DNA of 64,000 nucleotides, taken from Raillietiella orientalis. Taxonomy: Eukaryota. Shown here piece after piece: positions 3,368 through 44,790 of the stretch; the first letter of the stretch is position 1; each line of letters opens with the position of its first letter. A program made the translations under genes and the position numbers. The notes below the pieces were generated by a model that saw only the letters and a list, made by a program, of their open reading frames with translations, ran no database searches and had not been told where the DNA came from. The stretch spans positions 124,001 through 188,000 of the forward strand of contig JAYWIR010000076.1 of NCBI GenBank assembly GCA_036172245.1. Direction: 5' to 3'.

Positions 3368-5016
3368 ATGCCTGATACCACCACCGGTGAGGTTCCGGGG
3401 GCGATGATCTCATTGACTTCACAGCAAATGGAGGTGGGGGCTCCCGCATCAGTGGAGACTTCCGCCAGCACGGATGCGCCCCGGCCCTACCCAAGGCTTG
3501 GAACGCCGTGGCAGCGGCACCTACGCCAGCGGCTATGGCGGAAATGCGCGCTTACCTGAAGGAGTGGTATCACCCACCCCTTCTATATAAGGTAGGCGGT
3601 CTATATCCTCCTGTGAACGCGCGCGCCTTCTCACAGGCGATGCGCGTTCTCGGCGTACAGAAAAAGGAGCTTCTGGCTATGTCCGTCAGAAGCGGGGGTC
3701 AATTTGTGGTAGTTATCTGCAAGGAGGCAACTCTTGCGCACAGACTTCTGCGAACCCCCGTAATTATGGGCAGCCGAAGGCTTCTACCAATTACTGAAGA
3801 CCGGTCGGTGATCATTCACCTGACCGGTATCACGTTCCGGATGACGAAGGAGGCCGTCCGGAACGAATTGGAAAAATTCGCAACTGTCCACGCGCTGTGG
3901 GGAAAGTCTACTCCTTTTGTCGATTACGACGGGGTGCTTGGCGGCCTGGGTGCATCGCGAGTGACGGTTCGCGAGGGATGTGAGGTTCCCCACAAACTCA
4001 CCGTCAACGGTGAATCCGTTGACGTGTGGTACGTGGGGAAACCCAAGTTTTGCGGCTGCTGCAGCAGCTTTGGTCACCTTAAAATGAGGTGTCCGAGCGT
4101 GCAGTGCCAGCAATGCAACCAAGCGGGGCACACCCGTCTTGTGTGCCCCCGAAACACAGTCCGCGTAGTGTCCTCGAAAAACGCGAGAAAGCGCGCTGCT
4201 AAGAAGAGTAAAAAGCTGGCAGCTCGTGTTGCTGCTAAGGAGGTCACTTCCGCCACCAAGGCGAAGGCCAGCCTCGACACCCCGGCGAAAAACGCTGAAA
4301 AGGTCGAGGGTGAGGGTCAAGAGCCAGGGTGGCAGAAGGTCGATCCCAAGAAAAACTCCCATAAGAAGGGAAAGAACGTGGCGAAACGGAGCGAAACCGC
4401 TCTGCGCCGCGAAAAAATTAAAAGCTGCTGCGTCGTTGTAGAGCGGATTCCCGCCATCGACGGATGCGGCGCTAAAGAACTCGCTGCCGCCCCTGCTCAA
4501 CCCTCCGTTGACAAAGTCAACAAGGAGGGGAGCGAGGCGGCGGCGTCCGTCAGCGGAAGGGGAAGCCGGACGCCATACGTCGCCTTCGAGCGCGCCGCGG
4601 AGGAGCTGGCTGCCTCGCTGCAGCCGGTTGCCCCCGAGGCTGGCAAGAAGGCCGTAAGGCGTCCGGCTTCCCCTCAGGAGTCGGCCACTTCCGACCCCGA
4701 GGTGAAGGCCGGAAAGACAGCATCCATCTCCGCGGCACCCCGCAAAAAGGCAGGACGAAAGTCCACAATGCCCCGGAAGATCGTTTCCCCCGACGAAGGG
4801 GAAGAGATGGCTTCCGGTAGCGAGGGTGCCATGAGCGTGGGAAACTCCCGGGACCCGTCGCCCGAGAGAATTCCACGCTCGGACACGGAGGGGATGGTGA
4901 GGATGGAGGCCGAACAGGTACCCCAGGCGCCTGAAGAGGCCTCCGTCCTCGTACCGATGGACCTTTCCTACACCTGCCCCGCGGCAGGTGTCGCGACGCC
5001 ACTTTCCCAGCCATAA
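3368..5016 (+). pseudogene. Element E ORF1, gag-like protein with two CCHC zinc knuckles (one frameshift near 3490)
   Basis: CGCCSSFGHLKMRC and CQQCNQAGHTRLVC knuckles and a basic low-complexity tail. The stop overlaps the ORF2 start (TAATG, 5014-5018). Confidence 0.85.
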
Positions 5017-5167
5017 TGCCGGAAATCGCCTCTCGCCGTCGTCTTCTGATCGCCTGTTGGAACGTGAACGGGCTAAGCGACGACGGCAAGAGGCGCGACG
5101 TGGCCGCCACCCTGGCATCCTTCGACCTGGTGCTGCTGCAGGAGATCCACGTGATCTCCGCAGATCA

Positions 5168-5179
5168 AGCCCGGGAGAT
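5168..5179 (+). repeat. Target-site duplication of B1/B2: agcccgggagat (copies agcgcgggagat 11109-11120 and agcgcaggagat 17070-17081)
   Basis: Three near-identical 12-mers flank and separate B1 and B2. Removing the insert restores the E ORF2 frame A-R-E-I-E-R-I. Confidence 0.9.
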
Positions 5180-5532
5180 TTCTCACCCGGTCACGCCGGG
5201 GCGTTTATTCCATATAACATAACGAAAAAAAGCAATTATACAAAATAAACCAGTTGGGAACCAAACTCCCAACCGACGACTGAACAAGAATGAAGAGAAT
5301 ATTGCTGGCACGCAGGCAAGAGTAACAGTTTTGTGAACGGTGTGGGGGGGCGGGAAACACAAAGAAACCAAAATAAAATAAAAACAATGAATAAGGAGGA
5401 CGGGATAAGGGTCTTTGGGATCGCTCTGGAAGACACGGGGATAAAAGCATGGGCACCGGAACTTTTACCGAGCAAACAAGGACGGGGTATGGGTGGGCAA
5501 GAGGTCGCAGGGGTCACCGGATTACGCCGTTC

Positions 5533-8500
5533 TCAAAGGTGTGTAAACCGGCGATGTATGCCGGTGATGTCCCCATTCACCTTGTCACGAAGATGAGACC
5601 ACCTTGAAGCCTTCTCCATGAATTGTGCTGCAAGCAGGTGAGCCTCCCTTCGCTGCGAAGACAACTCCAGGGCGTAGCGGGCCTTCACGATGGCGCGAAC
5701 GCAACACATGTTTGCGACAATCGCGCCAACCGAAAGTCCATTTCTGCTAAAGAAGCGCCGCAGCACATGAATGGCAGTGCCTCCTTGTGGCATGATGGCC
5801 GAAGTGAGCCTTCGCCACAGTTCCCGGAGGTCACCGCAGTCCAGCAAAAGGTGCGGACAAGACTCGATCTCTCCGCACCTTAAACAGTTTGGCAAAGCAG
5901 CTCCCCCGGAAACGATGCTTCGCTGCCTATTACAGTGAAATGCACAATGTAAAAAGAGCAGCACATCTTGTTTCCACTTAAGGGGGAACACGGAGCTGTC
6001 CAAACAAACGGGAGGAACCACTATCTCTCCGAGGGGCACACTTAAATGTTCGCTCCACCGAAGCAGTCCCTTCGCCCGATTCCGAGGTGTGGCGGCTTGC
6101 ACCAGCTCCTTTGTCGTCCAGCTGCCGAGGAGCTTACTGACTCAACCTATTTTGCAGGAGAACTCCCATTCCGCCGGTAGGCAACCGTCGTTGCTTGCCC
6201 TGAGTGCAGACAGCGCTTCGGCGAGTGATGTGGCGGCCAGACGATCCGCCAACTTCTTGTCCTGCATGACTTCGTCCATTTGATGACTGAGGAGAAGTCG
6301 CAGGCGTCGAAGATCTTCCGGCCGCGTTCCTTCGGAAGCCGCCCACAATGAAAAAGATTCCTGCCGCCATTCATTAATGTTCATGGGGCGGCAGGAGATC
6401 CAGCTTTGGGCTTCCAGCAGTGAGGACAGCTGCCTGAGCGGGAAGCCAAACCCTATTCTGGTGTGCCGAAAGTGGGGTAGCAACGAAAGCAGTCCCTCGC
6501 TTCCCGCGCAGCGCCTCAGTATAAGGCGTGCGTGTAAGCACCACGGCGTACACCACAGCTTGGCACAGAGCCGCAGCATGCGAAACTGCACCTGCAGTTC
6601 GATGCTGTTTAAGTCGAGGATGCCCAAGCCTGAATCCTGACGCGGCGCCACCAAGTCTTTAAGTCTAACACGGGATCTTGCAGCGCCCCACAACGCTTTG
6701 CGTAAGAGGCGCTGCGCCCAGACTTTGACTTCCTGGGGGGGTGGACAAACAAAAAACAGGGGGCGGAGGAGGGGGGCAACGAAGGTGTTCCAGATGCAGG
6801 CCCGTTCCGGCAAGACGAACTCGCCTCCTGAAAACGGGCCAAGTGCACGCTCTGCCTACCGAAGGCAGCCCGACCACGCTTCTGAGATGCAGAAGTCGCC
6901 CAACGGCACGCCAAGGTACCTGAGGTACCTGCCCGTGGGGATCCCCAGGTCGATCCAGTCGGACTGCCCCTCCCACGTCGCACCCACCGGAACAACCATA
7001 AACTTACTCCTGTTAACGCTCACGCCCGCACCGCGACGAATCAACTCAAAGAAGTCTTCAAGCGATGTCGCCGGGGTGGACATGGGCAACAGAAGAAGCA
7101 GGTCGTCGGCATAGGCTGCCACGGCAGGCGTACCTGGACAATGGCTCGGCAGGTTGGCTAGCGTCAGCCTGTAAGCCTCCAGCACCAATTCAAAATAGAT
7201 GCTGAAGAGCAGCGGGCTTAAGCTGTCACATTGCCTAATTCCTCGTCGTACCGGCACGCCGTACACGCGACAGCCACTGAAAACAATGGATGTAATCTTG
7301 TGACGCCAGCAGGAGCGCAAGTACGCCAACAGGGATGCCGGAAGACCCATACGTTCCAAAAGCTCAAGAAGAAGCTTTTGGTTCACGCAATCGAAAGCTT
7401 TGTGCAGATCGACTGCAACTGCACAGGCTACTGGGGTTTCGCTTTGCGACCCGTGCCTCCGTTAGTGAGAGATCGAAGGCGTCGCTACCGCATGACGATC
7501 CATTGCCACGCGATGATTCAATGGTAGCCATGTGCGGATGAACAAGAGGTTCGCGTCCATGGACCGCCCAGGAACAGCATAGGTCTGCTCCGGAATCACC
7601 AAAGACTTCGCGATCCTCCCCATCCGCGCCACCCAAAGTTCCGAGAACAACTTGACGTCCGGGTTCACTAATGTGATCGGACGCCAGTTTTTCAGTTGGC
7701 GCAAATCTCCGCCTTTCGGCAGTAGACGCACCTTCGCTGAGCGAAACGAGGCGGGGACATCGACCGAGTCTCGCATCAGTGACGAGAGTTGGAGCATCAG
7801 GGGGATGAGCTCCGCCGCAAAACACTGAAAGAATTCCGCGGGGAGCCCATCTTCGCCTGGCGCTTTTCGTCTCTTGAGCCCCGAGATGGCCGAGGAAATT
7901 TCCTCTGCCGTGAAGGGCTCATCAAGATGCGCGCTTTTCTCCTCGTCTACAACAGGTGCATCAATCGGCAGAAGCAGCAGGGAGAAGCTGCGTTCCGTCG
8001 GTGCCTCTGCATACAGAGAAGAGTAATAGCGCCTGACTATCCGTCGCACGTCGGCTGGAGCCGAGCATTCCCGGTGCTGGTCGTCGAGCAGAACTGTCGC
8101 CCCTGACTGCCAGACCTGGCGCTCGGCCTTGGCCTTGTACTCGGATAATCGACCAACGTCCGCGTGCCTGGAAAAGGAGCGGGCCTGCAGAAAATCTCTG
8201 CTGTTGGCTACGCCCTCTCCGAAGCCGCGCGGAAGCTGGTGCAAGGGAAACCGGCAGCAGAACTCGCGGACCGATCTTTTCAGATCGTCATAGTCCTCGA
8301 GCTCACTTATGGCAAAGCCGAGGAGGTACTGGCGAAGCTGCTCAGCCGCCTACGGGTGCCTTAGCCAGTCTGCCGGCATCCTCCAAAAACAGTTTGGAGG
8401 CCCCTTGCCTGACGGGAGCAATTCAAACTCGAGCCTGTTGTGGTCTCAAAGCACGGACGGCGCGGGACCTCTCCGACCCACTCGACACAGCAAGTGTTCA

Positions 8501-9087
8501 TCAAGGTATACGTGGTCCGGCGTTGCTGCCATAACAGGATCGCTAGCAAACAAGTTCCACGCGTGCACGGACGCGCACATCTCTTCCGCTAGCAACTTTT
8601 CCCTTTTGTGGGATCTATTCTCGGAGGGAAGGTGGACGTTAAAGTATCCCGCAATCAGATGGGCCACAGTAGGGTGAGATCGAGTGAGCCACTGGCTTTG
8701 AAGGGTACCGAAGAACTCAATCCTTTCGGCCCATCGTCCAGCACCGCTCGGCGCGTATACGTTGGTTATGACAAGGTCGATCGAGTCGGACAACTTGAGT
8801 ACAAGCTGTCCCACTCGGCCTTCCGTGTCGAAACGAACGCTGCGCACCGCTGTTGCCAAAGTTCCTCGCACGAGGAAAGCGACGCCGCACCTATAAAGTA
8901 GCGTTCCGCCCGCGCGCCGCTGGATTTCGGCAGCCTGCTCACCGGAGATGCTGTGAATCTCCTGCAGGAGCGTCAAGTCGAAGGCGCTCCGAGCGTCAGC
9001 CACTAGTCGCCTCTTCTCCTCGTGTTGGAGCCCGTTGACGTTCCAAGACGTTACGGCAACACGACGAGCAGACGCGATTGCTCTCAT
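5533..9087 (-). pseudogene. B1 ORF2 (APE + RT + Cys/His), broken by frameshifts and stops
   Basis: ORF pieces 8446..9090 (WNVNG, LQE, NVYAP), 7462..8244, 6856..7386 (YADD), 6142..6813 and 5533..6102. Confidence 0.9.
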
Positions 9088-10991
9088 CACGGCTGGGAAA
9101 GCGAGGCCGTGGTACTCGCCTCACCCGGCGAGCGGGCAGTAAGCAGCACAAAGGGGGTGGTGGACTCGGTCGCCACCGGCCTCAACTGTGCTGCACGTAA
9201 TCGGGTGCTCCTCCCCGGTATAGAACCTGTGATTTCCGAGGTGAGCACTCGCCGTTCCGCGGCGAGTGTGTCACGCCTCAGGGCTTCAGTCCTGCGGGCG
9301 CTCGCTCCCGCGCGAGATACGCGTCCTTCAGCTGCGTTATCGGACTCCTTAGCGGAGTCTGATGCTCGCACGATCGACGTGCGTTTGTATCCGTCCGATT
9401 GCACCGGAATGGTCTTCTCGGCGGTCACAGAAGCGGACTTGCACGCGTTGAAGGCGCTGGCTTTTTCCTTGGAAGAGTCACAAGCCGCGCGTGTTTTCGT
9501 ATTCCCGCGACTGCTTTTTCCTTTGGAAGAGCTCAGGGATGGAGGTTGCGGAGCTTTTTTTGGGGATTTTTCTTTCCTCCTCTTCACAACCTTCCATTCG
9601 CCTTCGCGATTTTCGGAGGCTTCCGCGACAGTAGTTGCGGAAACCTTCGGGATTTTCGCTGCGTTCTCTGGGGGCGTTGCTTTCGCTACGCCTTTAAAAA
9701 ACGGCAACGGAGTCACCTTCTCGACAGTCGGGAGATTGCTCCTCTCGTGCCGAGTCGGCGATGGGGCGACTGCATGCAGCGTGCTTTTGCTCGTCGCGAC
9801 GCTGCTTTTTACGGTTTTCGTAGCCTTTGCAGTGGGGCCTGCGCTGCAGTGGGGCTGTCCGGAACTCCGGAGGGACAACGGAACGGGGCAAGAAGTCTTC
9901 GCACTGTTGCGATCTTCCTGTTTTCCTACCTTTTCCTCCAGTGTGTTACGGAGATTTCCTGGTTCCAGGCTCGGAAAGGTGCCTGCGAGTTCGGCAGAGA
10001 GGGAAGGCACGGCACGCGTCAAACCCTCGCGCCCCTTTTTAATTGGCTTCCCCGCCGTTACTTTCCCCTTTCGGGGCGTTGCGGGCGGGGATGCTTTCTT
10101 TTTATCCGCGGATCGCTCGTGGTTTTTTTCGAGTTTTAGCGGACGAGGTTCTTTATTTGCCGCTGCGGCTTTTCGTGCAGTGGTCTCTTGAACCCGACGA
10201 ATTTCCGCTGCGGCTCTTTTTCTTGCAAGTACCGGGCACTTTTTGATTTCGTGCCCGGAATCTTTGCAATAGCGGCATCTTGGAGAGGGGCACTCTTTAA
10301 TTCGGTGCCCCTCCTTGCCGCACTGCTCGCACGCGCGACTCTGGCCTATGAACCACAGGTGAACGACCGTGCCGTTCACCTGCAGCTGCTCAGGCACAAC
10401 ACGCCTGTTCGCGACGGTGATCCGCGCGGAGGCTTGTCCAATGTGGACAGAGGGGAAATCCTTAAGAAGATTTCGCCTCCTCCACAGAGCGTGCACGGTG
10501 GCGAACTTCGCCTGCACACTTACGATATCGCGGTAGGAGATTTCCGGTTCGATGTCACACAATTGAACGACAAAAGAGTCGTCCATCGCGGTAGGTAGGA
10601 CTTCCTTGCCATTGAAGGTCAACGGCGTACGGAGAAGGCGCTGCACAAGTGCTGCGTTCTTGTACCGAATCTTCGTATTTTCCATCCTGCCAGGAGGCAT
10701 TATGGCAAGGACTTCCTCCTCGCGAACGCCGATCCGGACGAGCTCATCATTGAGCTCACGACCGATACTCCCGTTAAGGGGCCCACTGACCTTATAACGG
10801 AGTGCAGGCATGTATCCTGATGACACATATGCCTGGAACTCCGCATCGCAGGGTCCTGGTGTTTGGGAGGTAACGGCGGAGTAACTCCGCACCGGGGGCG
10901 AGGAAACCATTACGGAGGATGCGGCCACTTCAAGTGCAGCTGAAGTGCATCCAGTGGCTTGCTCCTCCACACTATCCTGTGTACTGGCCAT
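9087..10991 (-). CDS. B1 ORF1, uninterrupted 634-aa gag-like zinc-knuckle protein
   Basis: CEQCGKEGHRIKEC and CRYCKDSGHEIKKC. Ends in a TGATG overlap with ORF2 (9085-9089). Confidence 0.85.
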   Translation of the reverse strand: MASTQDSVEEQATGCTSAALEVAASSVMVSSPPVRSYSAVTSQTPGPCDAEFQAYVSSGYMPALRYKVSGPLNGSIGRELNDELVRIGVREEEVLAIMPPGRMENTKIRYKNAALVQRLLRTPLTFNGKEVLPTAMDDSFVVQLCDIEPEISYRDIVSVQAKFATVHALWRRRNLLKDFPSVHIGQASARITVANRRVVPEQLQVNGTVVHLWFIGQSRACEQCGKEGHRIKECPSPRCRYCKDSGHEIKKCPVLARKRAAAEIRRVQETTARKAAAANKEPRPLKLEKNHERSADKKKASPPATPRKGKVTAGKPIKKGREGLTRAVPSLSAELAGTFPSLEPGNLRNTLEEKVGKQEDRNSAKTSCPVPLSLRSSGQPHCSAGPTAKATKTVKSSVATSKSTLHAVAPSPTRHERSNLPTVEKVTPLPFFKGVAKATPPENAAKIPKVSATTVAEASENREGEWKVVKRRKEKSPKKAPQPPSLSSSKGKSSRGNTKTRAACDSSKEKASAFNACKSASVTAEKTIPVQSDGYKRTSIVRASDSAKESDNAAEGRVSRAGASARRTEALRRDTLAAERRVLTSEITGSIPGRSTRLRAAQLRPVATESTTPFVLLTARSPGEASTTASLSQP

Positions 10992-11476
10992 GTTGCACTA
11001 TGCTACTTGGCAGATTGCACAGGAACACACAAGTGCGAGCAAAAACGCAGGCACAAAGTTGCCCGATCGTTGGCGCGGAAAGACGCGGAAACACGTCTGC
11101 ACTGTACGAGCGCGGGAGATTTCTCACCCGGTCACGCCGGGGCGTTTATTCCATATAACATAACCAAAAAAAAAAGCAATTATACAAAATAAACCAGTTG
11201 GGAACCAAACTCCCAACCGACGACTGAACAAGAATGAAGAGAATATTGCTGGCACGCAGGCCAGAGTAACAGTTTTGTGAACGGTGTGGGGGGGCGGGAA
11301 ACACAAAGAAACCAAAATAAAATAAAAACAATAAATAAGGAGGACGGGATAAGGGTCTTTGGGATCGCTCTGGAAGACACGGGGATAAAAGCATGGGCAC
11401 CCGAAATTTTACCGAGCGAACGGGGACGGGGTATGGGTGGGCGAGAGGTCGCAGGGGTCACCGGATTACGCCGTTC

Positions 11477-14400
11477 TCAAAGGTGTGTAAACCGGCGATG
11501 TATGCCGGTGATGTCCTCATTCACCTTGTCACGAAGATGAGACCACCTTGAAGCCTTCTCCATGAATTGAGCTGCAAGCAGGTGAGCCTCCTTTCGCTGC
11601 GCTGACAACTCCAGGGCGTAGCGGGCCTTCACGATGGCGCGAACGCAACACATGGTTGCGACAATCGCGCCAACCGAAAGTCCATTTCTGCTGAAGAAGC
11701 GCCGCAGCACATCAATGGCAGTGCCTCCTTGTGGCATGATGGCCGAAGTGAGCCTTCGCCACAGTTCCCGGAGGTCACCGCAGTCCAACAAAAGGTGCGG
11801 AAAAGACTCGATCTCTCCGCACCTTAAACAGTTTGGCAAACTAGCTCCCCCGGAAACGATGCTTCGCTGCCTATTACAGTGAAATGCACAATGTAAAAAG
11901 AGGAGCACATCTTGTTTCCACTTAAGGGGGAACACGGAGCTGTCCAAACAAACGGGGGGACCCACTATCTCTCCGGGGGGCACACTTAAATGTTCGCTCC
12001 ACCGAAGCAGTCCCTTCGCCCGATTCCGAGGTGTGGCGGCTTGCACCCGCTCCTTTGTCGTCCAGCTGCCGAGGAGCTTACTGACTCCCGCTATTTTGCA
12101 GGAGAACTCCCATTCCGCCGGTAGGCAACCGTCGTTGCTTGCCCTGAGGGCAGACAGCGCTACGGCGAGTGGTGTGGCGGCCAGACGATCCGACAACTTC
12201 TTGTCCTGCATGACTTCGTCCATTTGATGACTGAGGAGAAGTCGCAGGCGTCGAAAATCTTCCGGGCGCGTTCCTTCGGAAGCTGCCCACGATGAAAAAG
12301 ATTCCTGCCGCCATGCATTAATGTTCATGGGGCGGCAGGAGATCCAGCTTTGGGCTTCCAGCAGTGAGGACAGCTGCCTCAGCGGGAAGCCAAACCCTAT
12401 TCTGGTGTGCCGAAAGTGGGGTAGCAACGAAAGCAGTCCCTCGCTTCCCGTGCAGCGCCTCAGTATAAGGCGTGCGAATAAGCACCACGGCGTACATCAC
12501 AGCTTGGCACAGAGCCGCAGCATGCGAAACTGCACCTGCAGTTCGATGCTGTTCAAGTCGAGGATGCCCAAGCCTGCATCCTGACGCGGCGCCACCAAGT
12601 CTTTAAGTCTAACACGGGATCTTGCAGCGCCCCACAACGCTTTGCGTAGAAGGCGCTGCGCCCAGACTTTGACTTCCTGGGGGGGTGGACAAACAAAAAA
12701 CGGGGGGCGGAGGAGGGGGGCAACGAAGGTGTTCCAGATGCGAGCCCGTTCCGGCAAGACGAACTCGCCTCCTGAAAACGGGCTAAGTGCACGCTCTGCC
12801 TTCCGAAGGCAGTCCGACCACGCTTCTGAGACGCAGAAGTCGCCCAACGGCACGCCAAGGTACCTGAGGTACCTGCCCGTGGGGATCTGCAGGTCGATCC
12901 AGTCGGACTGCCCCTCCCACGTCGCACCAACCGGAACAACCATACACTTACTCCTGTTAACGCTCACGCCCGCACCACGACGGATCAACTCAAAGAAATC
13001 TTCAAGCGACGCTGTCGGGGTGGACATGGGCAACAGGAGAAGCAGGTCGTCGGCATAGGCTGCCACGGCAGGCGTACCTGGACAGGAGCTCGGCAGGTTG
13101 GCTAGCGTCAGCCTGTAAGCCTTCAGCACCAATTCAAAATAGATGCTGAAGAGCAGCGGGCTTAAGCTGTCACCCTGCCTAATTCCTCGTCGTACCGGCA
13201 CGCCGTACACGCGACACCCACTGAAAACAATGGATGTAATCGCGTGGCGCCAGCAGGAGCGCAAGTACGCCAACAGGGATGCGGGAAGACCCACACGTTT
13301 CAAAAGCTCAAGAAGAAGATTTTGGTTCACGCAATCGAAAGCTTTGTGCAGATCGACTGCAACCGCCAAGGCTCCCGGTGTCTCCCTTTGCGTCCCGCGC
13401 CTCTGTCGGTGAGAGATCGAAGGCGTCGCTTCCGCACGACGATCCACCTCCACACGAAGCTGCAATTGCAGCCATGTGCGGATGAACAAGAGATTCGCAT
13501 CCATGGACCGTCCTGGAACAGCGTACGTCTGCTCCGGACTTACCAAGGATTCCGCGATCCTACCCATCCGCGCCACCAAAAGTTTCGAAAACAACTTGAC
13601 GTGCGAATTCACTAATGTGATCGGACGCCAGTTTTTCAGTTGGCGCAAATCTTCGCCTTTCGGCATTAGACGCACCTTCGCTGAGCAAAACGAGGCGGGC
13701 ACATCGCCCGAGTATCGCTTCAACCACGAGAGTTGGAGAACCAGGGGGATGAGCTCCGCCGCAAAACACTGGAAGAATTCCGCGGGGAGCCCATCTTCGC
13801 CTGGCACTTTTCGACTCTTGAGCCCCGAGATGGCCGAGGAAATTTCCTCTGCCGTGAAGGGCTCATCAAGACGCGCGCGTTCCTCCTCGTCTACAACAGG
13901 TGCATCAATCGGCAGAAGCAGCCGGGAGAGGCTGCGTTCCGTCGGTGCCTCTGCATACAGAGAAGAGTAATAGCGCCTGACTATCCGTCGCACGTCGGCA
14001 GGAGCCGAGCATTGCCGGTCCTGGTCGTCGAGCAGAACTGTCGCCCCTGACTGCCAGACCTGGCGCTCGGCCTTGGCCTTGTACTCGGATAATCGACCAA
14101 CGTCCGCGCGCCTGGAAAAGGAGCGGGCCTGCAGAAAATCTCTGCTGTTGGCTACGCCCTCTCCGAAGCCGCGCGGAAGCTGGTGCAAGGGAAACCGGCA
14201 GCAGAACTCGCGGCCCGATCTTTTCAGATCGTCCCAGTCCTCGAGCTCACTTATGGCAAAGCCGAGGAGGTACTGGCGAAGATGCTCAGCCGCCTCCGGG
14301 TGGCTTAGCTAATCTGCCGGCATCCTCCAAAAACAGTTTGGAGGCCCCTTGCCTGGCGGGAGCAACTCGAACTCGAGCCTGTTGTGGTCTGAAAGCACGG

Positions 14401-15049
14401 ACGGCACGGGACCTCTCCGACCCACTCGACAGAGCAAGTGTTCATCAAGGTATACGTGATCCGGCGTTGCTGCCATAACAGGGTCGCTAGCGAACAAGTT
14501 GCACGCGTGCACGGACGCGCACATCTCTTCCGCTAGCAACTTTTCCCTTTTGTGGGATCTATTCTCGGAAAGCAATTGGACGTTAAAGTCCCCCGCAATG
14601 AGATGGGCCACAGTAGGGTGAGATCGAGTGAGCCACTGGCCTTGAAGGGTACCGAAGAACTCAATCCTTTCGGCCCATCGTCCAGCACCGCTCGGCGCGT
14701 ACACGTTGGTTACGACAAGGTCGATCGAGTCGGACCACTTGAGTAAAAGCTGTCCCACTCGGCCTTCCGTGTCGAAACGAACGCTGCGCACCGCTCCCGC
14801 CAAAGTTCCTCTCACGAGGAAAGCGACGCCGCACGTACGTGCAACGCCGCACCTATAAAGTAGCGTTCCGCCCGCGCGCCGTTCGATTTCGGCAGCCTGC
14901 TCTCTGGAGATGCTGTGAATCTCCTGCAGGAGCGTCAAGTCGAAGGCGCGCAGAGCGTCAGCCACTAGTCGCCTCTTCTCCTCGTGTTGGAGCCCGTTGA
15001 CGTTCCAAGACGTTACGGCAACACGACGAGAAGACGCGATTGCCCTCAG
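11477..15049 (-). pseudogene. B2 ORF2 (APE + RT), interrupted by in-frame stops
   Basis: ORFs 14309..15052 (GDFN, SDH), 12497..14188 (YADD) and 11477..12427 lie in the same frame. Confidence 0.9.
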
Positions 15050-16952
15050 CACGGCTGGGAAAGCGAGGCCGTGGTGCTCGCCTCACCCGGCGAGCGGGCA
15101 GTAAGCAGCACGACGGGCTGGAGGGCGCGGTCGCCACCGGCCTCAACTGTGCTGCACGTAATCGGGTGCTCCTCCCCGGGGGCAGAACCTGTGGGTTCCG
15201 GGGTGAGCACTCGCCGTTCCGCGGCGAGTGTGTCACGCCTCAGGGCTTCAGCCCTGCGGGCGCTCGCTCCCGCGCGAGTTACGCGTCGTTCAGCTGCGTT
15301 ATCGGACTCCTTTGCGAATTCTGATGCTCGCACGATCGACGTGCGCTTGCATCCGTCCGATTGCACCGGAATGGTCTTCTCGGCGGTCACAGAAGCGGAC
15401 TTGCACGCGTTGAAGGCGTTGGCTTTTCCTTGGAAGAGTCACAAGCCGCGCGTGTTTTCGTATTCGCGCGACTGCTTTTTCCTTTGGAAGAGCTCAGGGA
15501 TGGAGGTTGCGGAGCTTTCTTTGGAGATTTTTCTTTCCTCCTCTCCACAACCTTCCATTCGCCTTCGCGATGTTCGGAAGCTTCCGCGACAGTAGTTGCG
15601 GAAACCTCCGGGATTTTCGCTGCGTTCTCTGGGGGCGTTGCTTTCGCTACGCCTTTAAAAGGCGGCAACGGAGTCACCTTCTTGACAGTCGGGAGATTCC
15701 TCCTCTCCTGCCGAGTCGGCGATGGGGCGACTGCATGCAGCGTGCTTTTGCTCGTTGCGACGCTGCTTTTTACGGCTTTCGTAGCCTTTGCAGTGGGGCC
15801 TGCGCTGCAGTGGGGCTGTCCGGAACTCGGAAGGGACAACGGAACGGGGCAAGAAGTCTTCGCACTGTTGCGATCTTCCTGTTTTCCTACCTTTCCCTCC
15901 AAGGTGTTACGGAGATTTCCTGGTTCCAGGTTCGGAAAGGTGCCTGCGAGTTCGGCAGAGAGGGAAGGCACGGCACGCGTCAAACCCTCGCGCCCCTTTT
16001 TAATTGGCTTCCCCGCCGTGACTTTCCCCTTTCGGGGCGTTGCGGGCGGGGATGCTTTCTTTTCATCCGCAGATCGCTCGTGGTTTTTTTCGAGTTTTTG
16101 CGGACGACGTTTTTTATTTGCCGCTGCGGCTTTTCGTGCAGTGGTCTCTTGAACCCGACGAATTTCCGCTGCGGCTCTTTTACTTGCAAGTACCGGGCAC
16201 TTCTTGATTTCGTGCCCGGAATCTTTGCAATAGCGGCATCTTGGAGAGGGGCACTCTTTAATTCGGTGCCCATCCTTGCCGCACTGCTCGCACGCGCGAG
16301 TCTGGCCTATGAACCACAGGTGAACGACCGTGCCGTTCACCTGCAGCTGCTCAGGCACAACACGCCTGTTCGCGACGGTGATCCGCGCGGAGGCTTGTCC
16401 AATGTGGACAGAGGGGAAATCCTTTAGAAAATTTGGCGTCCTCCACAGAGCATGCACGGTGGCGAACTTCGCCAGCACACTTACGACATCGCGGTCGGAG
16501 ATTTCCGGTTCGATGTCGCACAATTGAACGACAAAAGAGTCGTCCATCGCGGTAGTTAGGACTTCCTTGCCATTGATGGTCAACGGCGTACGGAGAAGGC
16601 GCTGCACAAGTGCTGCGTTCTTGCACCGAATCTTCGTATATTCCATCCTGCCAGCAGGCATTATGGCAAGGAGTTCCTCCTCGCGAACGCCTATCCGGAC
16701 GAGCTCATCATTGAGCTCACGACCGAATCTCCCGTTAAGTGGCCCACTGACCTTATAACGGAGTGCAGGCATGTATCCTGATGACACATATGCCTGGAAC
16801 TCCGCATCGCAGGGTCCTGGTCTTTGGAAGGTAACGACGGCGTAACTCCTCACCGGGGGCGAGGAAACCATTACGGAGGATGCGGCCACTTCAAGTGCAG
16901 CTGAAGTGCATCCAGTGCCTTGCTCCTCCACACTATCCTGTGTACTGGCCAT
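15049..16952 (-). pseudogene. B2 ORF1, frameshifted near 15425
   Basis: ORFs 15387..16952 and 15046..15390 together match B1 ORF1. Confidence 0.87.
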
Positions 16953-17081
16953 GTTGCACTATGCTACTTGGCAGATTGCACAGGAACACACAAGTGCGAG
17001 CAAAAACGCAGGCACAAAGGTGCCCGATCGTTGGCGCGGAAAGACGCGGAAACACGTCTGCACTGTACGAGCGCAGGAGAT

Positions 17082-17805
17082 CGAACGGATCTCGGGTGGG
17101 CGGCTGTTGTGGCGTTGCGGCACCGCGAAATCAAGCGGTGTCGCCTTCCTGCTTCGGCCAGCCATCGAGACCGCAATAAAGGACGTTCGGTTCGATGACG
17201 CAGGTCGCGTCGGTCAGCTGACTCTCAGCTGGTCCGACTCTATCGACCTGGTCGTCACCAACCTATACGCTCCTAGCGGTAACAACGCGCTGAGAGCGAA
17301 GGCAAGAAGGGAATTCTACCTTGCCCTGAGACGCGATTGGCTGACCGATGCAGGAGTTCGCAAAGCGCACCTGATCGCAGGTGATTTCAACCTGCGCCTG
17401 CTTTCAGGTGCGCCGGATACACTGAACGACCGCGTCAACGAGTTGTGCGCAGAAATGAACACGCGCAACTTGTTGGCCGGGGACACGGCCATGGAAAGCA
17501 GCACCGATCACGTGTACCTTGATCTGCACCTATGCTCTCGGGTGGGCAGGCGCGGCAAGGTACCATCCGAGCTGTCGGACCATGGTCGGATCATGTTCGA
17601 AATGCGTCCGCGCGACAAGGGCTCCCCCTCGTCAGCGTGACGTCTGCCAGGGGACTAGCTGAAGTTTCCCGACGCTGCGGAGCACCTTTGCGCGTTCATT
17701 CGGAGCTTCAGGATGCAGACACTTCAGGACTGGGACCGCTTCAAGCGGTCGGTCCAGGAGTTCTGCGACCAGTTCCCCTGCATCGCCTACCTGCGGGGTT
17801 TGGGG
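17082..17805 (+). mobile_element. Element E segment 2 (APE endonuclease core and linker)
   Basis: SGVAFLL, NLYAP, AGDFN, DHVYL, LSDH, then PLHRLPAGFG where F is inserted. Confidence 0.9.
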
Positions 17806-18022
17806 TTCTCACCCGGGTACGCCCGGGGCGTTTATTGAAAAAAGTCTACATAAACGTGGTACAAGGCCCCTCTAACGGCCACACAACACCGGACCTGCCG
17901 GGACGCCGGGACGCAGCCCGGCGTGACGCTCCTCGGCAGTGGAGGGGGATAGGGATCAAAACAAAAAGAAAAATAAAGATATCAAAAGAAAAACAAAAAG
18001 AGTTTGGAGGGAGGGGAAGGGA

Positions 18023-21000
18023 TCACAATCCACTGGGAGGAGGGCCCATGCATCGTAGGATGCCTTCCAGGTCCATCTTCATGCTTCCCAGATAGGGCCA
18101 TCTCGCAGCTCTCCGCATGAAGCAGACCGCATACGGGATGACATCCCTCGCGTTGGCATCCACTCCTTCGTCGCGAATGTCGCTCCAGGCCGCCACGATG
18201 CTTCGGATGCAGCAGAGGGCTGCGAGGGCTGCGGCGGGCTGCAAGGCGTCCCGCACGAAGAGGGGCCAAAGAACGTCTCTGGGCGCGCTGCCCATTGGGA
18301 GCCCGAGGGTCGTCCCGAACCGTTCCCACAGTCAACAAGTAAGTGGAGGAGCAATTCCCGCTCCTTACACCTGGCACACTCAGGCCTTACACTTCCCCTC
18401 GTCCAGTGGAAGCGGCGCGCGTTGCAGGGTAGACCCCAGTGCAACAGTAGCAGCGCCAACTCTTGCCACTTAAGGGGGAGAAGCCTGGATTTGATTAATA
18501 TTGGCGGCCACTTCAGGTCATCCGTCGGGATGCCGAGAAGCTCTCCCCATCTACGAAGTCCACGCGGGAGGGCAATCGGGGTTGTGGCATCTGCCAGTTC
18601 TCCCATGGTCCAACCGCTCTTCCTCTTTTCCTTGCCTGCGATTCGGCAGGAGACTTGCCACTTTGGCTTGCGGCCGGTCGTTAAAGCCCTTCGTAGGAAG
18701 GGCAGGGTCGAAGCTAGGGGGGTATTCTCGGCCCACGTGCTCCTGGCGGGACACTCCAGAGTAGTCCGCAGTGTGTAGCAGGCGTTGGGGCGGTTCCAGT
18801 CCGGGGAAGTCTGGAGGTTCAGCTTGGCCCAAGTCGCAACGGATTCCTCCAGCCAGGCGGAGGAGTTGGCGGGGCTGCATACCATCCAGCCGTTGTCTCT
18901 CACCAGGGCTTCCATGCGCCCAAGGAGAAGGTTGCATCTTCTGACCTTCCTGCCAGAGCACAGAAGGTACGACGCGAGTCCTTGCGTCCTGGACACACGG
19001 CTGGCGAGGATGCGGGCCTGAGCGCACCAAGGGGTCCTCCATGACATTGCTGCGATGGCGAGGGTGCGCCATCGCAGCTGTATTTCCAGGCGCTCCAGCG
19101 TCAGGAGGCCGAGACCGCCGTCCCGACGAGGAGTGCATAAGTCATCTAGAGGCACACGTGGCCTTTCGCTGCCCCAGAGGGCGATGCGGAGTACGTCCTT
19201 GGTCCTCTTTTTAATGTCACGGGGGACGGGGCAAACAAAAAGCAGTTGGCGGAGGATGGGAGCCGCGAACGCGTTCCACACCGCGGCCCGTTCCGGCAGA
19301 AGGAACTTGCCTTCCAGGAACACGCCGATTGCCAACTCTACCTTTTGGAGACGACCTGACGAGGCTTCTGCGAGGCAGAAGTCCCCCAACGAAACACCCA
19401 GGTACTTCAGGTACCTGGCCGCGGGGATCCCCAAGCGGATCAAGTCAGGCCGTGCGACCTACGTCGCACCCACCGGTACGACCGACGACTTCGCCTTGTT
19501 TACCCGAAGTCCAGTCCCACGACTTAGCAGGTCGAAGAAATCCTCGACTGCGGCTGCCGGGGCGGACATGGGCAACATGAGCAGAATGTCGTCGGGGTAT
19601 GCTGCTACCCCGGGCGTGCCGGGGCACGAGCTGGGCAGGGCAGCCAAAGTCACCCTGTACGCTCTCAGCACCAACTCAAAGTAGGTGCTAAAGAGCAGGG
19701 GACTGAGGCTATCGCCCTGCCGTATGCCCCGTAGCACCGACACGCCGTACACCTGTTGGCTGGAGAAGCAGATGTTAAGGATGGCGTTGCGCCAGCAGGA
19801 GCGCAGGAAGGAGAGAAGGGAGGGTGGGAAGCCCATGCGACCCAGGAGCTCCAACAGTAGCTCCTGGTCAACGCACTCGAACGCCTTATGGAGATCGACC
19901 GCGATCGCTAGGGCCCCCTTTTCAGCCCGGGTGTCTATTTCCAGCCCAGCTGGCGGTTCCAAAGTGGGGTTGCCAATCTTACCGCCAGTTTCATTCAGGC
20001 AGCGCTGCACATGGAACCATTTGCTCGCGAAGAACAGGTTGGCATCCATACTTCGCCCGGGAACAGCGTATGTCTGCTCCGGGCTAATTATGGAGTCTGC
20101 CACCTGTCCTAGACGCGAAGCCCACAGTCCAGCGACCAGCTTGGCGTCCGTATTCACAATTGTGATCGGCCGCCAGTTGTCTAGGGATCTCAGGTATGCT
20201 CCCTTCGGGAGGAGCCTCACACGGGCTGACCGAAACGAGGCGGGACCGTCGCCTTCATCTCGGATCAGCCCGGTCAACTGGAGCACCAGAGGAGCCAGCT
20301 CTGTCGCGAAGCATTGAAAGAATTCCGCAGGCATGCCGTCCTCCCCTGGCGCCTTACGCCTCTTGAGCCTTTTAATACCGGCGAGAATTTCACCGGTAGA
20401 AAAAGGCTCGTCGAGGCTGATCCTCTCCTCCTCCCCTATTGCCTGGACTCCGTCGGGAAGCAGGAGCCGCGAGGCGTCCCGCTCTGGGGGTGCCCTAGCG
20501 TAGAGGGAGGAATAGTACTGCCGCACGAGGTGCCTGATCGCGGGTGGGGCCGATCGCTCCCGGCCCTGGTCGTCCCGCAAGCTGGCCGACCCGGATTGCC
20601 AGGCTTGGCGCTCGGCCCCGGCTGGAAATTCGGCCAGGCGACGGACATTGGAGGACCTCCCTTACCGGCGGGCCTGTAAATAGGCCCTATGGTTCCGAGC
20701 CCCCTCCCCAAATCCGGAAGGCAGGCGGTGCAGGGGAAACTCCTCGCAGAACTCGCGGACCGAGGCCTTGAAGAGGTCCCAATCTTTGAGACTGCGGAGG
20801 GTGACGCCTCTCAGGAATTCGTCAAGGTGTTCCTTCGCACCTTAGAGCCGCGTCCAGTCCCCAGGCAACCGCCACGCCCTGGCCGGGGGTCCTTCATCGC
20901 GCGGGCATACCTCGGCGATTAACCTGGAATGGTCCGACAGCGTCCACGCAACTTTTCCCCGTTTGCCGACCCGCGAGCACAGGTCGACATCCAGGAAGAA

Positions 21001-21584
21001 GTGGTCGATGCTGCGGTCCATTCCCTCCGCGTCCACCAAGTTGCGCGTGCGCATAGCAGCGCACAACTCGTTTGCCGTGCGTTCTTGTGCTTCGGGCTCA
21101 CCTGACAGCATACGGAGATTAAAGTCCCCAGCTATCAGGTGTGCTTCCGCACGTTCGTATCGGCCAGCCAGTCGCGCTTCAGGGTTTCCACCAACCTGGT
21201 ACGGTCGCTGTGTCCCCCTTTCCCGGTTGGTTCGTACACGTTCGTGACGATCAATTCGATCGAGTCGGACCAGCTGAGAATCAGCTGACCGACCCGACCG
21301 TCGTCATCGAAGCGTACGCCCTTGACGGCAGCGTCGATGGCCGGCTTCACGAAAAACGCGACCCCACAGATGTTACGTGCGCCGCATCGCCAATACAGTC
21401 GACCATCCGCGATTTTCTCGATCTCCTGGACGTCTGCCGAGGTGATCACGTGGATCTCCTGCAGCAGAGCCAGGTCGAACTCACGCATGGTGTAGGCCGT
21501 ATCTCGTCTGTTGCCGTCGTCGCGCAGCCCGTTGACGTTCCAACTGGCCACGCGGATTCGACGGCGACAGGCGAGCCCAGGTGT
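18023..21584 (-). pseudogene. F ORF2 (APE + RT), frameshifted
   Basis: WNVNG/LQE (21135..21551), RT 19459..20580 (AYPDD), C-terminus 18079..19443. Confidence 0.88.
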
Positions 21585-25837: not shown

Positions 25838-28800
25838 TCACGTTCCGCTGGAGACGTCCTCTACATCCTTTGCAGGATGCCGACAAGTTCAAACTGCATG
25901 TGTCCCAGTTGGGTCCATCTGGCTGCCGTCCTCAGGAAGCGCAGGGCGTAGCACAAGATGTCCCTATTGTTCGGTTTACCAGTGGCGGTGCTCCAAGCCG
26001 CTACAATCCCTCGTAGGCAGCAGAGGGCTGCAAGGGCTGCGGCAGGCGAAAGGGCGTCGCGCACGAAGAGGCGCTTTAAAAGGTCTCTGGGAGCGTGCAA
26101 GAGTGCACCAACGGCTGTTGCAAAGCGCAACCACAAGGGCCGGAGGGCAACACAGTCAACGAGCAGGTGCGGGAGAGTTTCTCGTTCCCCGCACCTGACA
26201 CAGTTTGGGTCCACAACCCCCCTCGACCAATGAGAGCGGCGGGCGTTGCTGGGGAGTCCCCAGTGCAACACCAGGAACGCCGACTCCTGCCACTTTAGGG
26301 GGAGGGCCCGAGTATTCCTCAGCACTGGGGGCCACTCGAGTGCATCCCGCAAGATGCACAGCAGCTCGCCCCAGCGCAACAGTCCTCTCGGTGGGGAACT
26401 TGGGATCGCGGCATCAGCAAGCTGACCCGTGTTCCAACCACCTTGTTCTTTCTCAGTGTCCCTGATCGTACACCGGGCCTCCCACATGGCCGGCTGGCTA
26501 CTGCCCAGATGTTCCTTGAGGTGAGACAGAGCTGTGGCAAGGGAGGTCCTCTCAGCCCACGCACTCAAGGCGGGCTGCACGATGATGTCCGGCAGCGAGC
26601 GGCTCTTATGATAGGAGTGCAGCATTTGCTGCCGCAACTCCGGGCTCGCTTCCTCGATCTGGGCCTACGTGCGAAGGCTTTCCTGCAACCAGGAAGTGCC
26701 GTTCGCGGGCCGGCAGGAGATCCAGGTGTTCTTCCTGGTCAGCTTCGCCACTCGCCGAAGAGCCAGTCCGCAGTGGAACAGGTACCGGCGTTTGCGGCGC
26801 GCTAGGAAGGTAGACAGTCCCGCGCAGCCGCCGACTCGCTGAACCAGGCATCGTGCAGGCTCGCACCAGCTGCCGCTCCACAACTTCGCCACTAGGGCGA
26901 TTGTTCGGAACTGCAGCTGCAGTTCGAGGCGCTCCAGCGTGAGGAGGCCAAGGCCCCTATCGCGACGAGGGGCGCACAAGTCCTTCCAACGCGCGCGGGG
27001 CCTTCCTCTGCCCCAGATGGCGATTCTGAGAAGGTCCTTTGTACGTGTTCTCACACCACGGGGTGGGGGACAAACAAAAAGCAAGGAGCGAAACAGGGGG
27101 GCCACGAAAGTGTTCCACAGCACGGCCCGTTCCGGCAAGAAGAACTTGCCATCCAGGAACGGGCCGATCGCTCTCTCGGCCTTTTGGAGGCAGCAAGACC
27201 ATTGTTCCGCTGGGGAGTAGTCCCCCAACGGCACACCGAGGTACTTAAGGTGCCGTACCGTTGGGATCACCAAGCGAGACCAGTCTAGCTGCCCTGCCCA
27301 CGAGGAACCGACTGCAACAACGGACGACTTTGCTCTGTTCACCTCTAGTCCTGTCCCGCGACGCAGCAGCTCGAAAAAGTTTTCGACCGCCGACGCCGGG
27401 GTGGACATGGGGAGCAGCAGCAGAAGATCGTCCGCATACGCCGCCAAGGCCGGTGTACCTGGGCACACGCGCGGCAGGCGACCAAGAGTCTCCCTGAATG
27501 CCCTCAGCACCAACTCGAAGTAGGTGCTGAAGAGCAAGGGGCTCAAGCAATCACCATGCCGTATCCCGCGGCGCACCGGCACACCGAACAGGTTTCTTCC
27601 CCTGAAAGAAATGTTGGTCAGCGCGTCGTGCCAGCAAGAGCGCAGAAAGGCCAATAAGGTGGCCGGGAAGCCCAAGCGCTCCAGAAGCTCCAGCAGGAGC
27701 TCCTGGTCGACACTGTCGAATGCTTTCCGCAAATCGACAGCGACTGCGAGGGCCCCTTCTCTCTCCCGACTATCCCGCGAACCACCAGCGGACGTCCCGC
27801 AAATCGGGCTGCCGACCTTGTTCCCTCCATTCATTCTGGTTCTTTGAAGTTCGAACCAGGTGTTCGCGAAGAGCAGGTTGGCGTCCATGCTTCGCACGGG
27901 AACAGCGTAGGTCTGCTCCGGGCTGATGAAGCTTTCCGCCACCCGCCCCATTCGCTCCGACCATAGCTTCGCAACCAGCTTGGCGTCCGCGTTCAGTATG
28001 GTAATCGGACGCCAATTGCTGAGGTTCCGTAAGTCTCCTCCTTACGGTAGGAGACGCATACGTGCCGATCGGAAGGAGGCGGGAACGTCTCCTGTCTCCC
28101 GGATCAGCAGCGTTAGCCGCTGCACCAGGGGAGCCAGCTCCGCCGCGAAGCACTGAAAAAACTCCGCGGGCAGGCCGTCTTCCCCCGGTGACTTCCGCCT
28201 TTTGAGCTTCCCGATTGCGGTGATGATTCCACCCATCGTGAAAGGCTCGTCCAGGCGTACTCTCTTTTCTTCCCCGATCGCCGGGGCACCGTCCGGAAGC
28301 AAAAATTGGGAAAATTCCCGGTCCGGAGGCACCCTGGTGTACAGGGAAGAATAATAGCCGTGCACTAGGCTACTCACCTCTGCCGGGGCCGAGTGCCCTT
28401 GGCCTTCGTCGTCCAGCAGGCTGGGCGACCCCGATTGCCAGGCCTGCCGCTCGGCCCCGGCTTTAAATTCCGCCAGTCTTCGGACGTCTGGTGTTCGGGA
28501 GTAACGACGGGCCTACAGGTAAGCCCTATCGTTCCGAACACCTTCTCCAAATCCTTTCGGGAGACGGTCCATGGGGAACTGTTGGCAGAACTCTCGCACC
28601 GAGACTTTCAAATCGTCCCAGTCGTCGAGCGTCTGCAGGCTACAACCTCGCAAGAACGCGCGGAGGTGTTCCGCTGCGCCTGGCTTGGTCAGCCAGTCCC
28701 CCGGTAGACGCCATGCCTGCGCGGGGGGCCTTCTGTCGCGCGGGCGAATGACGAGTTCCACACGAGAGTGGTCGGAGATTGCGGACTGTATCTTACCTCG

Positions 28801-29427
28801 CCTGCCCACGCGACAGCGCAGGTGATCGTCGAGGAAGACGTGGTCCACGCTCCGTTCCATCCCGGTATCCCCGGCTAACAAGTTGGATGCGTGCACCGCA
28901 GCGCACATCTCGTTAACCGGGGTGGCCTCTGTCCTCGCCGCACCTGATAGCAGGCGAATATTAAAATCGCCGGCTATCAGGTGCGCCGTGCGCGCGCCTG
29001 CCTCCGACAGCCAGTCGCGCTTGAACGCACGGAAAAACGCCGTCCGTGCCACGCGCGCGTGGCCGCCGCTCGGCGCGTACACGTTCGTGACGACGAGATT
29101 GATGGAGTCGGACCACCTGAAGGTGATTTGCCCGACCCGACCTGCCTCATCGAAACGAACTTTCCGCACCGCGCGTTGTAAGGCAAACTTCAGAAGGAAA
29201 GCGACCCCGCGCGTACGGCGGTGGCCGCATCGCCACATAAGCTGACCACCTGCTATCCGTTCGATCTCCCGCGCATGTTCTGCGGAAATCTCATGAATCT
29301 TCTGCAGCAGCACGAGGTCGAAGGCTTGCAAGGTGGCAGCTATGTCTCGTCTCCTGCCGTCATCGCAAAGCCCGTTGACGTTCCAGCTGGCGATGCGTAT
29401 TTGACGGCAGGTGGCGAGTCCCGGCAT
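25838..29427 (-). pseudogene. D ORF2 (APE + RT + Cys/His), interrupted by in-frame stops
   Basis: ORFs 28513..29427, 28042..28377, 26665..27951 (YADD) and 25861..26637. Confidence 0.9.
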
Positions 29428-31764: not shown

Positions 31765-32103
31765 AGATTCCGGAGAGTGACCCCTCTCAGCTTTTCGCGA
31801 AGGTGTTCCTTCGCACCTGAGAGTCGCGTTTAGTCCCCCGGCAGACGGCAATCCCTGGATGGCGGTCCTTTGTCGCGAGGCTGCATCTCGAAAATTAACC
31901 AGGAATGGTCCGACAGCGTTGACGCAACCCTCCCCCGTTTGCCGACCCGCAACACAGGTCAGCGTCGAGGAAGACGTGGTCGATGCTGCGCACCATTCCC
32001 CTCTCACCCGCGAACAAGTTGCGCGCACGCATGGCGACGCACAACTCGTTCATCGCGTTCACTTGGGTTTCCGGCTCACCTGTTAGCAGACGGAGATTGA
32101 AAT
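31765..32103 (-). mobile_element. Element A, second segment (APE C-terminal half); starts with the 11-bp TSD shared with 3272-3282
   Basis: Reads FNLRLLTGEPETQVNAMNELC..IDHVFLD..LSDH..EHLREKLRGVTLRNL and joins to QDWDLFKESVREFC at 3271. Confidence 0.87.
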
Positions 32104-43289: not shown

Positions 43290-43371
43290 TGCAGAGTTAC
43301 TCAGTATATATACCACTCCACAGACAACGAAATCCAAGTCTTACTTACAGTAAATTTCAGACAGCACCATT

Positions 43372-44501: not shown

Positions 44502-44790
44502 TTAGTATAAGCCTACATCTTTAAGATGCTTGAACACCACATAGTATTTACGAGTTACCCTGTATATCGGATATCCCTTAGTCAATCGCCCATTTTTCGG
44601 ACAAACACCTGATTGACAAGCTTCCTTTAATTCGTCTGGAATATCCACGCCAGACATGTGCTTCATTATATGTATACGGTTGAAATGAACAAAACTTTTT
44701 GTTTCCACATCGTTCAGGTAGCTTCGCTCAGCTGGCCGTTCAGCCAAGAACGTGTACGAAATGTCCGAACCTGCGCTTCCTCTCGTACTA
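44502..44790 (-). pseudogene. cap: Capsid C-terminal segment, diverged from the overlapping part of the first copy
   Basis: MKHMSGVDIPDELKEACQSGVCPKNG matches MKHMSGVDIPDDLKEACQSGVCPKNG at 42190-42266 and continues to YYVVFK and a stop. Confidence 0.78.

Follow-up and report, generated by a model that had tools for sequence, protein, structure and literature searches.

L1-group retrotransposons of Raillietiella orientalis whose endonucleases are predicted to lack the DNA-probing hairpin insert at exact, subfamily-specific sites

The stretch of DNA analyzed here, which we call the window, comprises 64,000 nucleotides (positions 124001-188000 of the contig) of the 210-Mb Raillietiella orientalis assembly, and self-BLAST shows that a nest of non-LTR retrotransposons occupies it from position 1 to ~42,200. 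Each element of the nest has a gag-like ORF1 with CCHC knuckles and an ORF2 containing an endonuclease, a reverse transcriptase (RT) and a zinc finger. The displayed part holds the back part of the APE endonuclease domain of copy E (17083..17637, + strand; Pfam PF03372, E 1e-06), a dead copy with a stop at 17638. All 150 scored candidates in the genome matched it, and intact copies of its subfamily, at 96%, lie elsewhere. Within this back part are the GDFN motif (17380..17391, +; equivalent to D145 and N147, the D and N being invariant in a 54-row alignment) and, placed by the same alignment, DH (17506..17511, +; D205/H206, with the Asp codon at 17506-17508) and SDH (17575..17583, +; D229/H230). 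Directly before DH, gaps in the HMM and MAFFT alignments mark a stub of 10 codons (17476..17505, +) that replaces the alphaB3 helix, the connector, strand betaB6 and the hairpin; it includes a Thr codon at 17485, 7 residues ahead of the aspartate of DH. The front half of copy E, a gag-like ORF1 with two CCHC knuckles plus the endonuclease N-terminus, is found at 3391..5179 (+). An earlier, sequence-only reading had counted the catalytic motifs as present, and for this part of copy E this holds for GDFN, DH and SDH, but WNVNG (at 5058) and LQE (both within 5058-5150) lie 12 kb away in the front half. Among the other copies, the aspartate of GDFN is replaced by Y in B and its asparagine by K in H.

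Relative to an intact E copy (L133), the two halves are 94% (front) and 97% (back) identical and occupy adjoining positions. They are split by B and C, two tandem elements of the C subfamily that lie antisense in the E endonuclease gene (5180..17069, -; defined by self-BLAST at 95% and by their junctions), with 12-bp duplications at 5168-5179, 11109-11120, and 17070-17081, and the point of insertion is the C-specific site. A D-like element that retains ORF2 and the 3' end (17806..21570, -) is inserted antisense in E just past the endonuclease. The elements share a 3' end, exemplified at 5180..5209 (-), that consists of AATAAA, a GC-rich stem-loop and a fixed 5-nt tail ending in AA, with no poly(A). 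PF03372 scored above its cut-off in three of the four window domains tested, the mutated G-type copy being missed, and in all four intact ORF2s. Just past the end of the nest is a large-subunit rRNA fragment (44836-44945, -; Rfam RF02543, 102.9 bits), and two copies of a 117-bp repeat (42190-42306 and 44590-44705, 84% alike) flank broken reading frames at 43370-44385 (+) that presumably resemble Rep, a protein of small circular ssDNA viruses. Also outside the nest are decayed pieces of an ORF2 like that of lineage X, described below (47033-48096, +), and two stretches that presumably are host-like coding sequence, a CAP/SCP-like frame (51825-52667, +) and an alpha-galactosidase-like exon (54877-55182, -).

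With their CCHC-containing ORF1, their ORF2 of endonuclease, RT and zinc finger, their target-site duplications and their 5' truncation, the elements are APE-type, L1-group non-LTR retrotransposons. In an RT tree (FastTree) a branch with SH 99 and a long-branch warning separates the eight nested subfamilies and X from the rest, and these nine rows fall in an unresolved fork outside a 48-row Tx1-like group, in a set that includes no named Tx1 reference. Dualen-type elements carry a second, restriction-like endonuclease in ORF2. In the four intact ORF2s, Pfam gives only the endonuclease, the RT and a weak zf-RVT as domains, and this profile search, taken up to an E-value of 1, showed no second (restriction-like) nuclease. 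The elements share the target preference of Tx1-like elements for repeats and snRNA genes, and according to the available text of PMC4494074 the Tx1 clade resembles them in its APE-RT ORF2, its CCHC ORF1 and its targets in other repeats and snRNA genes. It also has fixed targets, as here, with Tx1L in Tx1D, Keno in U2 snRNA, Tx1-Mar in Mariner-N4, and Tx1-8_Crp in LTR elements (PMC4494074).

The sequence-only reading had called attention to the short distance between the GDFN aspartate and the DH aspartate, and this was borne out. The spacing is 41 residues in E, 43 in copy C (14318..15025, -) and in copy B (8446..9063, -; GDFN aspartate mutated), 40 in the frameshifted endonuclease of the D-like element (20842-21570, -), 41 in copy F (28705..29409, -), and 43 in G and H, the endonucleases of copy G and of the second copy of the G subfamily, both with 43, lying at 33190..33890 (-) and 39087..39800 (-); the six window copies other than E thus range from 40 to 43. 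The yardstick used for human L1, 60 from D145 to D205, agrees with the numbering in PMC1950540 as far as that source is available. Every one of the 126 distinct segments from the fetched loci and the window is short: 39 in 21 of them, 40 in one, 41 in 69, and 43 in 35. The set includes intact ORF2s of ~1200 aa from at least eight subfamilies that are 52-74% identical to one another, and short spacing is also found in lineage X, which is only 26-29% (~27%) identical to the nested subfamilies and whose endonucleases have a spacing of 39 in all 13 that could be read from 16 fetched stretches. Of 1567 PF03372 candidates in the genome 150 were scored; these best matches span ≤630 nt, like the short type, and the 13 that were measured have a spacing of 39. 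The presence of the short form in 126/126 segments, among them intact ORF2s of many subfamilies and X, means that it is inherited and not due to chance or decay; it is a heritable, lineage-wide property in this genome.

Relatives in other genomes are different. The comparison set consisted of 364 proteins (150 + 99 + 115), rich in Tx1-like and plant L1 sequences and so no census of all clades, of which 119 were truncated or had no anchor motif and 245 could be measured. The spacing is 58-69 in 227 of the latter, ≥70 in six, 54-57 in eight, and 45-50 in three, and the single value below 44 results from mis-anchoring, so that none is truly below 45. The automatic short values of P0024, P0031, P0033, P0065, and P0294 are all false for this reason, and by eye these proteins have the full segment. 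Short spacing is hence not a common feature of ordinary L1 and Tx1 elements, at least among the proteins sampled, and the nearest database endonucleases, which by our reading of their motifs are Tx1-like, keep the full segment, unlike those here. A Thr/Ser anchor lies 11-22 residues before the aspartate in all of the 174 outside proteins measured first, values that are upper bounds as they use the most N-terminal candidate; if the nearest candidate is taken instead, the distance is ≤8 residues in 18/245 and there is no candidate in 22, both as raw counts. The connector begins with a D-x-aromatic-R/K motif in 126 of the 174 outside proteins, but in none of the 126 segments inside. No longer protein close to the C endonuclease was found among 8000 scored candidates, which is weak evidence. 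A profile search of 1.84 billion representatives gave only one close match, P0005, a 106-aa fragment that ends before the segment, and a search of the ESM Atlas gave only generic EEP clusters.

The structural models indicate what the short spacing means for the fold. Both the profile alignment to L1-EN variants, with a gap of 14-18 residues, and the 54-row MAFFT alignment place the missing part directly before the DH strand. The AlphaFold model of an intact E domain (97% identical to copy E) has a mean pLDDT of 90.4, and 76-82 in the segment, where the stub is predicted as coil plus a 3-residue helix, and the model of X has a mean of 93.5, and 93-96 in the segment. In both models a short strand is followed by 12 or 6 residues without strand and then by the DH strand, and neither has a strand pair beyond the core at the position of the protruding betaB6-betaB5 hairpin, where the alignments have their gap. 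L1-EN is nevertheless the best structural match of both (E: Z 26.2, rmsd 2.1, 210 aligned; X: Z 25.2, rmsd 2.8, 208 aligned), TRAS1-EN scores below it (Z 22.1), and Foldseek (E-value 2.6e-17 to 1VYB) likewise finds the EEP sandwich fold closest to L1-EN. The human LINE-1 endonuclease (PDB 1VYB, 7N8S) has the same catalytic set as the elements here. In its complex with DNA, as PMC8565326 describes it in the part available, the loop reaches into the minor groove 3' of the nick with Pro197 and His198, and in our models nothing protrudes at this place. The proposal that the betaB6-betaB5 loop is missing is thus supported by both models, but it accounts for only part of the shortening. The deficit of 19 (E) or 21 (X) residues divides into 10-11 in the alphaB3 connector, ~6 in the hairpin, and 3-4 in the loop after GDFN, a division counted from aligned L1 residues that assumes that the Thr 7 residues before the aspartate corresponds to T192; a Thr occupies this position in 17/21 segments of the X group and 46/105 of the nested group. 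As the connector and the loop after GDFN are also short, the deficit is not all hairpin: about half of the missing residues belong to the helix connector and the hairpin is reduced to a stub. A single origin of the loss would be the simplest reading of the RT tree.

The hairpin is called common to LINE endonucleases in PMC1919474, and the available texts of PMC1919474 and PMC1950540 describe it as needed for activity and target choice. The sources differ on APE1, which has no hairpin according to PMC1919474 and an equivalent loop of other length according to PMC8565326, both as far as available. T192 is 13 residues away from D205 in L1; the R1Bm graft shortens this distance to 11, and the L3G deletion, which retains 10% of the nicking and 0% of the retrotransposition, to 6 (PMC1950540, in part). 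By our proposed register the distance here is 7, making the stub one residue longer than that of L3G, and, in contrast to L1, the alphaB3 connector is gone as well. L3G does not retrotranspose, whereas the elements here have many near-identical intact copies and exact targets. The sequence-specific APE domains R1Bm-EN and TRAS1-EN, in which residues outside the hairpin matter and of which R1Bm-EN resembles the elements here in its short consensus of 5-6 nt (PMC1919474, in part), keep the hairpin (in R1Bm, Thr175 to Asp186 is 11 and the spacing 60), unlike the elements here, and Tx1L has a hairpin that is longer than that of L1 (spacing 62 in the LTx graft), again unlike the stub. Our literature search, in which subscription papers and Repbase reports were mostly not covered, found no description of a natural retrotransposon endonuclease without the hairpin; loop alignments in the supplements of the papers may bear on this negative result.

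By several measures of sequence the stub endonuclease looks functional, a compact enzyme that would still be active. The catalytic residues N14, E43, Y115, D145, N147, D205, D229, and H230 are invariant in nine of nine lineage representatives. The dN/dS of the endonuclease domain is 0.19-0.33 in 8/8 subfamily pairs, with 0.15-0.28 for the RT. Candidate duplications of 10-16 bp begin exactly at the first base past the tail in 19 of 22 cases, all in 5'-truncated copies in which this start is not forced. It is these three lines taken together, invariant residues, dN/dS and duplications, that make the enzyme look alive.

We now turn to where the elements insert. In a first set of 104 junctions, C elements had entered the endonuclease gene of E or H in 10/12 cases (the other 2 being tandem), E had entered D in 4/7 (3 tandem), G the GDFN codons of D in 4/7 (2 tandem, 1 stray), Q had entered D in 4/7, and F had entered E in 3/3. 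The G insertions (e.g. window 32100-32133) are in sense orientation and sit exactly on D-type GDFN codons, wrecking the active site. Genome-wide, 46 of the 48 C ends found by exact match lead into the same junction. The other two, which are copies of one another, lie at this site with a single base altered, and they show that junction counts overstate the number of independent events. X is found at nucleotide 23 of U1 snRNA in 5/6 of the ends located, and a 60%-identical relative lies antisense in C ORF1 in 3/4, the fourth being tandem. The K family is looser, with 15/33 junctions at one site. The subfamilies, at least ten related ones of which retain an intact ORF2 or endonuclease and differ in their exact target, insert at exact sites of their own, mostly antisense inside sister elements and with duplications of 10-16 bp. 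Nested antisense targeting of this type was not described in the literature searched. An L1-group element of Chlorella, Zepp, reportedly inserts into copies of itself; here it is different subfamilies that enter different sister elements, mostly antisense. Two further observations concern U1. Elements of X stand in tandem behind a complete U1 gene, each then followed by U1 from nucleotide 23 (L136:1611-1773, L137:1581-1743, L138:1607-1769), so that an intact U1 is kept in front, and at L225 and L226 the 3' end of an X relative abuts a diverged U1-like sequence, again in this register although several bases beside the junction differ.

With the hairpin lost and the subfamilies still inserting at exact sites, something else must pick the target, and the junctions limit what this may be. 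A total of 159 were parsed (the first 30 of the shared-core matches, 58 of the 70 that follow, and the junctions within the cluster stretches fetched), a sample that leans to families sharing the exact stem-loop; the shared 3'-end core itself has 330 exact matches in the genome and the reversed control has 0. In 152/159 the tail is exactly 5 nt, ends in AA, and lies 24-25 nt past AATAAA and the stem-loop. The first target base is C in 92, A in 47, T in 19, and G in one, and 112/159 primers have no terminal T. Pairing of a poly(A) tail with a T-rich primer, as in L1, therefore cannot explain priming, and in contrast to human L1 there is neither a poly(A) tail nor a T-tract. For a test of target motifs, 114 junctions were assigned by hand to nine families by 3' UTR likeness and collapsed to 63 non-homologous sites, leaving out 45 junctions that are tandem or belong to small or single-site families. 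The leave-one-out match to the family base at +1 to +5 is 0.97, 0.79, 0.53, 0.67, and 0.80, compared with 0.53, 0.38, 0.32, 0.30, and 0.56 when labels are shuffled (p 0.001-0.012). It is 0.41 at +6 (p 0.057) and at background from +7 to +10. On the far side of the nick, with 13 testable sites, p is 0.32-0.69 at -3 to -1, 0.048 at -4, and 0.013 at -11; C occupies -2 in 13/22 sites and C-like strays have TC at -3/-2. The 5-nt family motif is found inside the 5' copy of the duplication of truncated elements, which means that it belongs to the target. All that stray insertions retain is thus the 5-nt motif of their family on the primer side of the nick. The sequence-only reading was correct that the nick sites are not T-rich, but the lack of a shared consensus is not a lack of specificity as each subfamily has exact sites and a motif of its own. 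The bases at +1 to +5 form the end of the primer, and the L1 hairpin acts at -1 to -3; the asymmetry between the two sides fits with loss of the hairpin. As to mismatches between junctions and empty sites, we rejected read-through RNA as their source, given that the targets carry those bases in the 5' duplication copies; a donor-imposed base is possible in one of 22 duplications (L189).

Based on these data we put forward a hypothetical mechanism with two filters, to which we give about as much credence as doubt. As the first filter, the stub enzyme would nick DNA with a weak preference of its own. The element RNA would run a few bases past the fixed tail into the surrounding target and, as the second filter, this read-through would pair with the nicked primer, ~5 nt being enough for a stray insertion and longer pairing favoring insertion at the canonical site. 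A subfamily with a new target would then arise from a copy that landed elsewhere and turned into a master. Priming by L1 needs ~4 matched terminal bases (PMC3649969) and annealing of read-through raises insertion of R2Ol (PMC6530143), both of which, as far as these sources are available, we count in favor of pairing. Not everything agrees. Some canonical-site junctions of the E family depart from the family motif beside the nick, positions +11 and +13 also have p ~0.01, and a donor-imposed base is possible only in the single duplication noted above. Moreover, pairing cannot explain the weak preferences on the far side (C at -2, TC at -3/-2), a scaffold that reads the bases 5' of the nick, like that of L1-EN (PMC1950540, in part), would give rise to the same 5-nt asymmetry, and swaps of endonucleases move specificity in TRAS1 and SART1 (PMC1919474, in part).

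Of the substitutes for the hairpin named in the sequence-only reading, an extra domain has no Pfam hit in the four ORF2s, chromatin by our inference would not give base precision, and RNA-DNA pairing is a viable candidate; it overlooked a plain rival, namely that the target is read by other loops of the endonuclease itself. This rival, which is a serious one though we think it the less probable, states that the compact endonuclease reads its target with the alphaB1-betaB3 loop after YAP, the betaB4-alphaB2 loop after GDFN, the loop before GVA and the stub, and that the start of the RT is fixed by the stem-loop with no pairing. Variability is highest in the loops after YAP and GDFN (identity 0.29 and 0.31 versus 0.57 overall in ten subfamily representatives), but surface loops vary anyway and a helix not facing the DNA scored 0.43. 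The alphaB1-betaB3 loop holds Asn118 of L1 (PMC8565326), and in it R1Bm Tyr98 and TRAS1 Asp130 affect specificity (PMC1919474), in the parts of these sources available. The dN of the endonuclease exceeds that of the RT in 8/8 pairs, E and H differ far more in endonuclease than in RT, and the weak far-side preferences also speak for this view. On the other hand, reading by loops would need new protein contacts for each of at least ten unrelated targets, it is at odds with a motif that shrinks to 5 nt in strays, and by itself it leaves precise priming on non-T primers unexplained. We therefore favor the two-filter pairing mechanism over reading by loops.

Two other explanations fare much worse. 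Nicking could be near random, in which case clusters would reflect selection together with tethering to chromatin or host factors, and identical junctions would reflect the duplication of blocks that were already nested. Elements do pile up in clusters and the assembly does contain duplicated segments (L223 and L224 are 99.9% identical), so that counts overstate independent events. However, C elements sit at the homologous base of both E and H, subfamilies whose ORF2s are 74% identical, and C-like relatives do so in a D-like element as well, empty targets are common, and strays at unrelated loci have the motif of their family within the duplications that they themselves produced. Since this motif recurs at 63 non-homologous sites, we regard the explanation as largely refuted and quite improbable. 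That the stub enzyme is (nearly) inactive and nicks are made in trans by a host nuclease or by an element with a normal hairpin is the least probable of all, for although L1 L3G is almost inactive (PMC1950540, in part) and the T192-equivalent position is Thr in fewer than half of the nested-group segments, the catalytic set is invariant, purifying selection is like that on the RT, the sites are family-specific, and the best 150 of the 1567 PF03372 candidates are all of a length like that of the short type.

We offer only tentatively, and with rather more doubt than belief, the broader idea that this lineage dropped its DNA-probing hairpin and moved target choice to RNA, the read-through flank serving as the guide of a reprogrammable, RNA-directed LINE. 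If so, each new master copy could found a subfamily with a new base-precise target, be it a sister element or U1 snRNA. In their mode of action the elements are like target-specific Tx1 and R1 elements (PMC4494074, in part), and their interest lies in the pairing of hairpin loss, of a loop supposed to be needed, with exact and diverse targets in a recently active lineage whose insertions are more site-specific than those of L1. In the text available, PMC1919474 and PMC1950540 leave open how APE retrotransposons select and switch their targets. This genome provides a natural panel of related subfamilies with different exact targets, in which swaps of the enzyme can be tested against swaps of the RNA flank. 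Should the RNA flank decide, site-specific gene insertion would be retargetable without protein engineering, and should the loops decide, there would be a second way of building specificity on the EEP fold.

Some additional observations concern the exchange of domains and the 5' ends. Between the E and H subfamilies (L133, L130) dS is 0.73 in the endonuclease and 0.30 in the RT, a contrast that suggests recombination of the endonuclease region between subfamilies that differ in their targets. Where full-length C elements lie in E targets, the 5' copy of their duplication has an H-type base (window 11109-11120 and 17070-17081; L135, L140), which suggests that the RNA of C elements starts within target-derived sequence. 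The 5' ends of full-length elements (window 17040-17081, -; L133, L144, L145, L127) contain GGACGTG or AGACGTG, located 21-23 nt past the start of the duplication, or 16 in G. We take this motif to resemble a downstream promoter element, and the target flank may supply the initiator for full-length elements.
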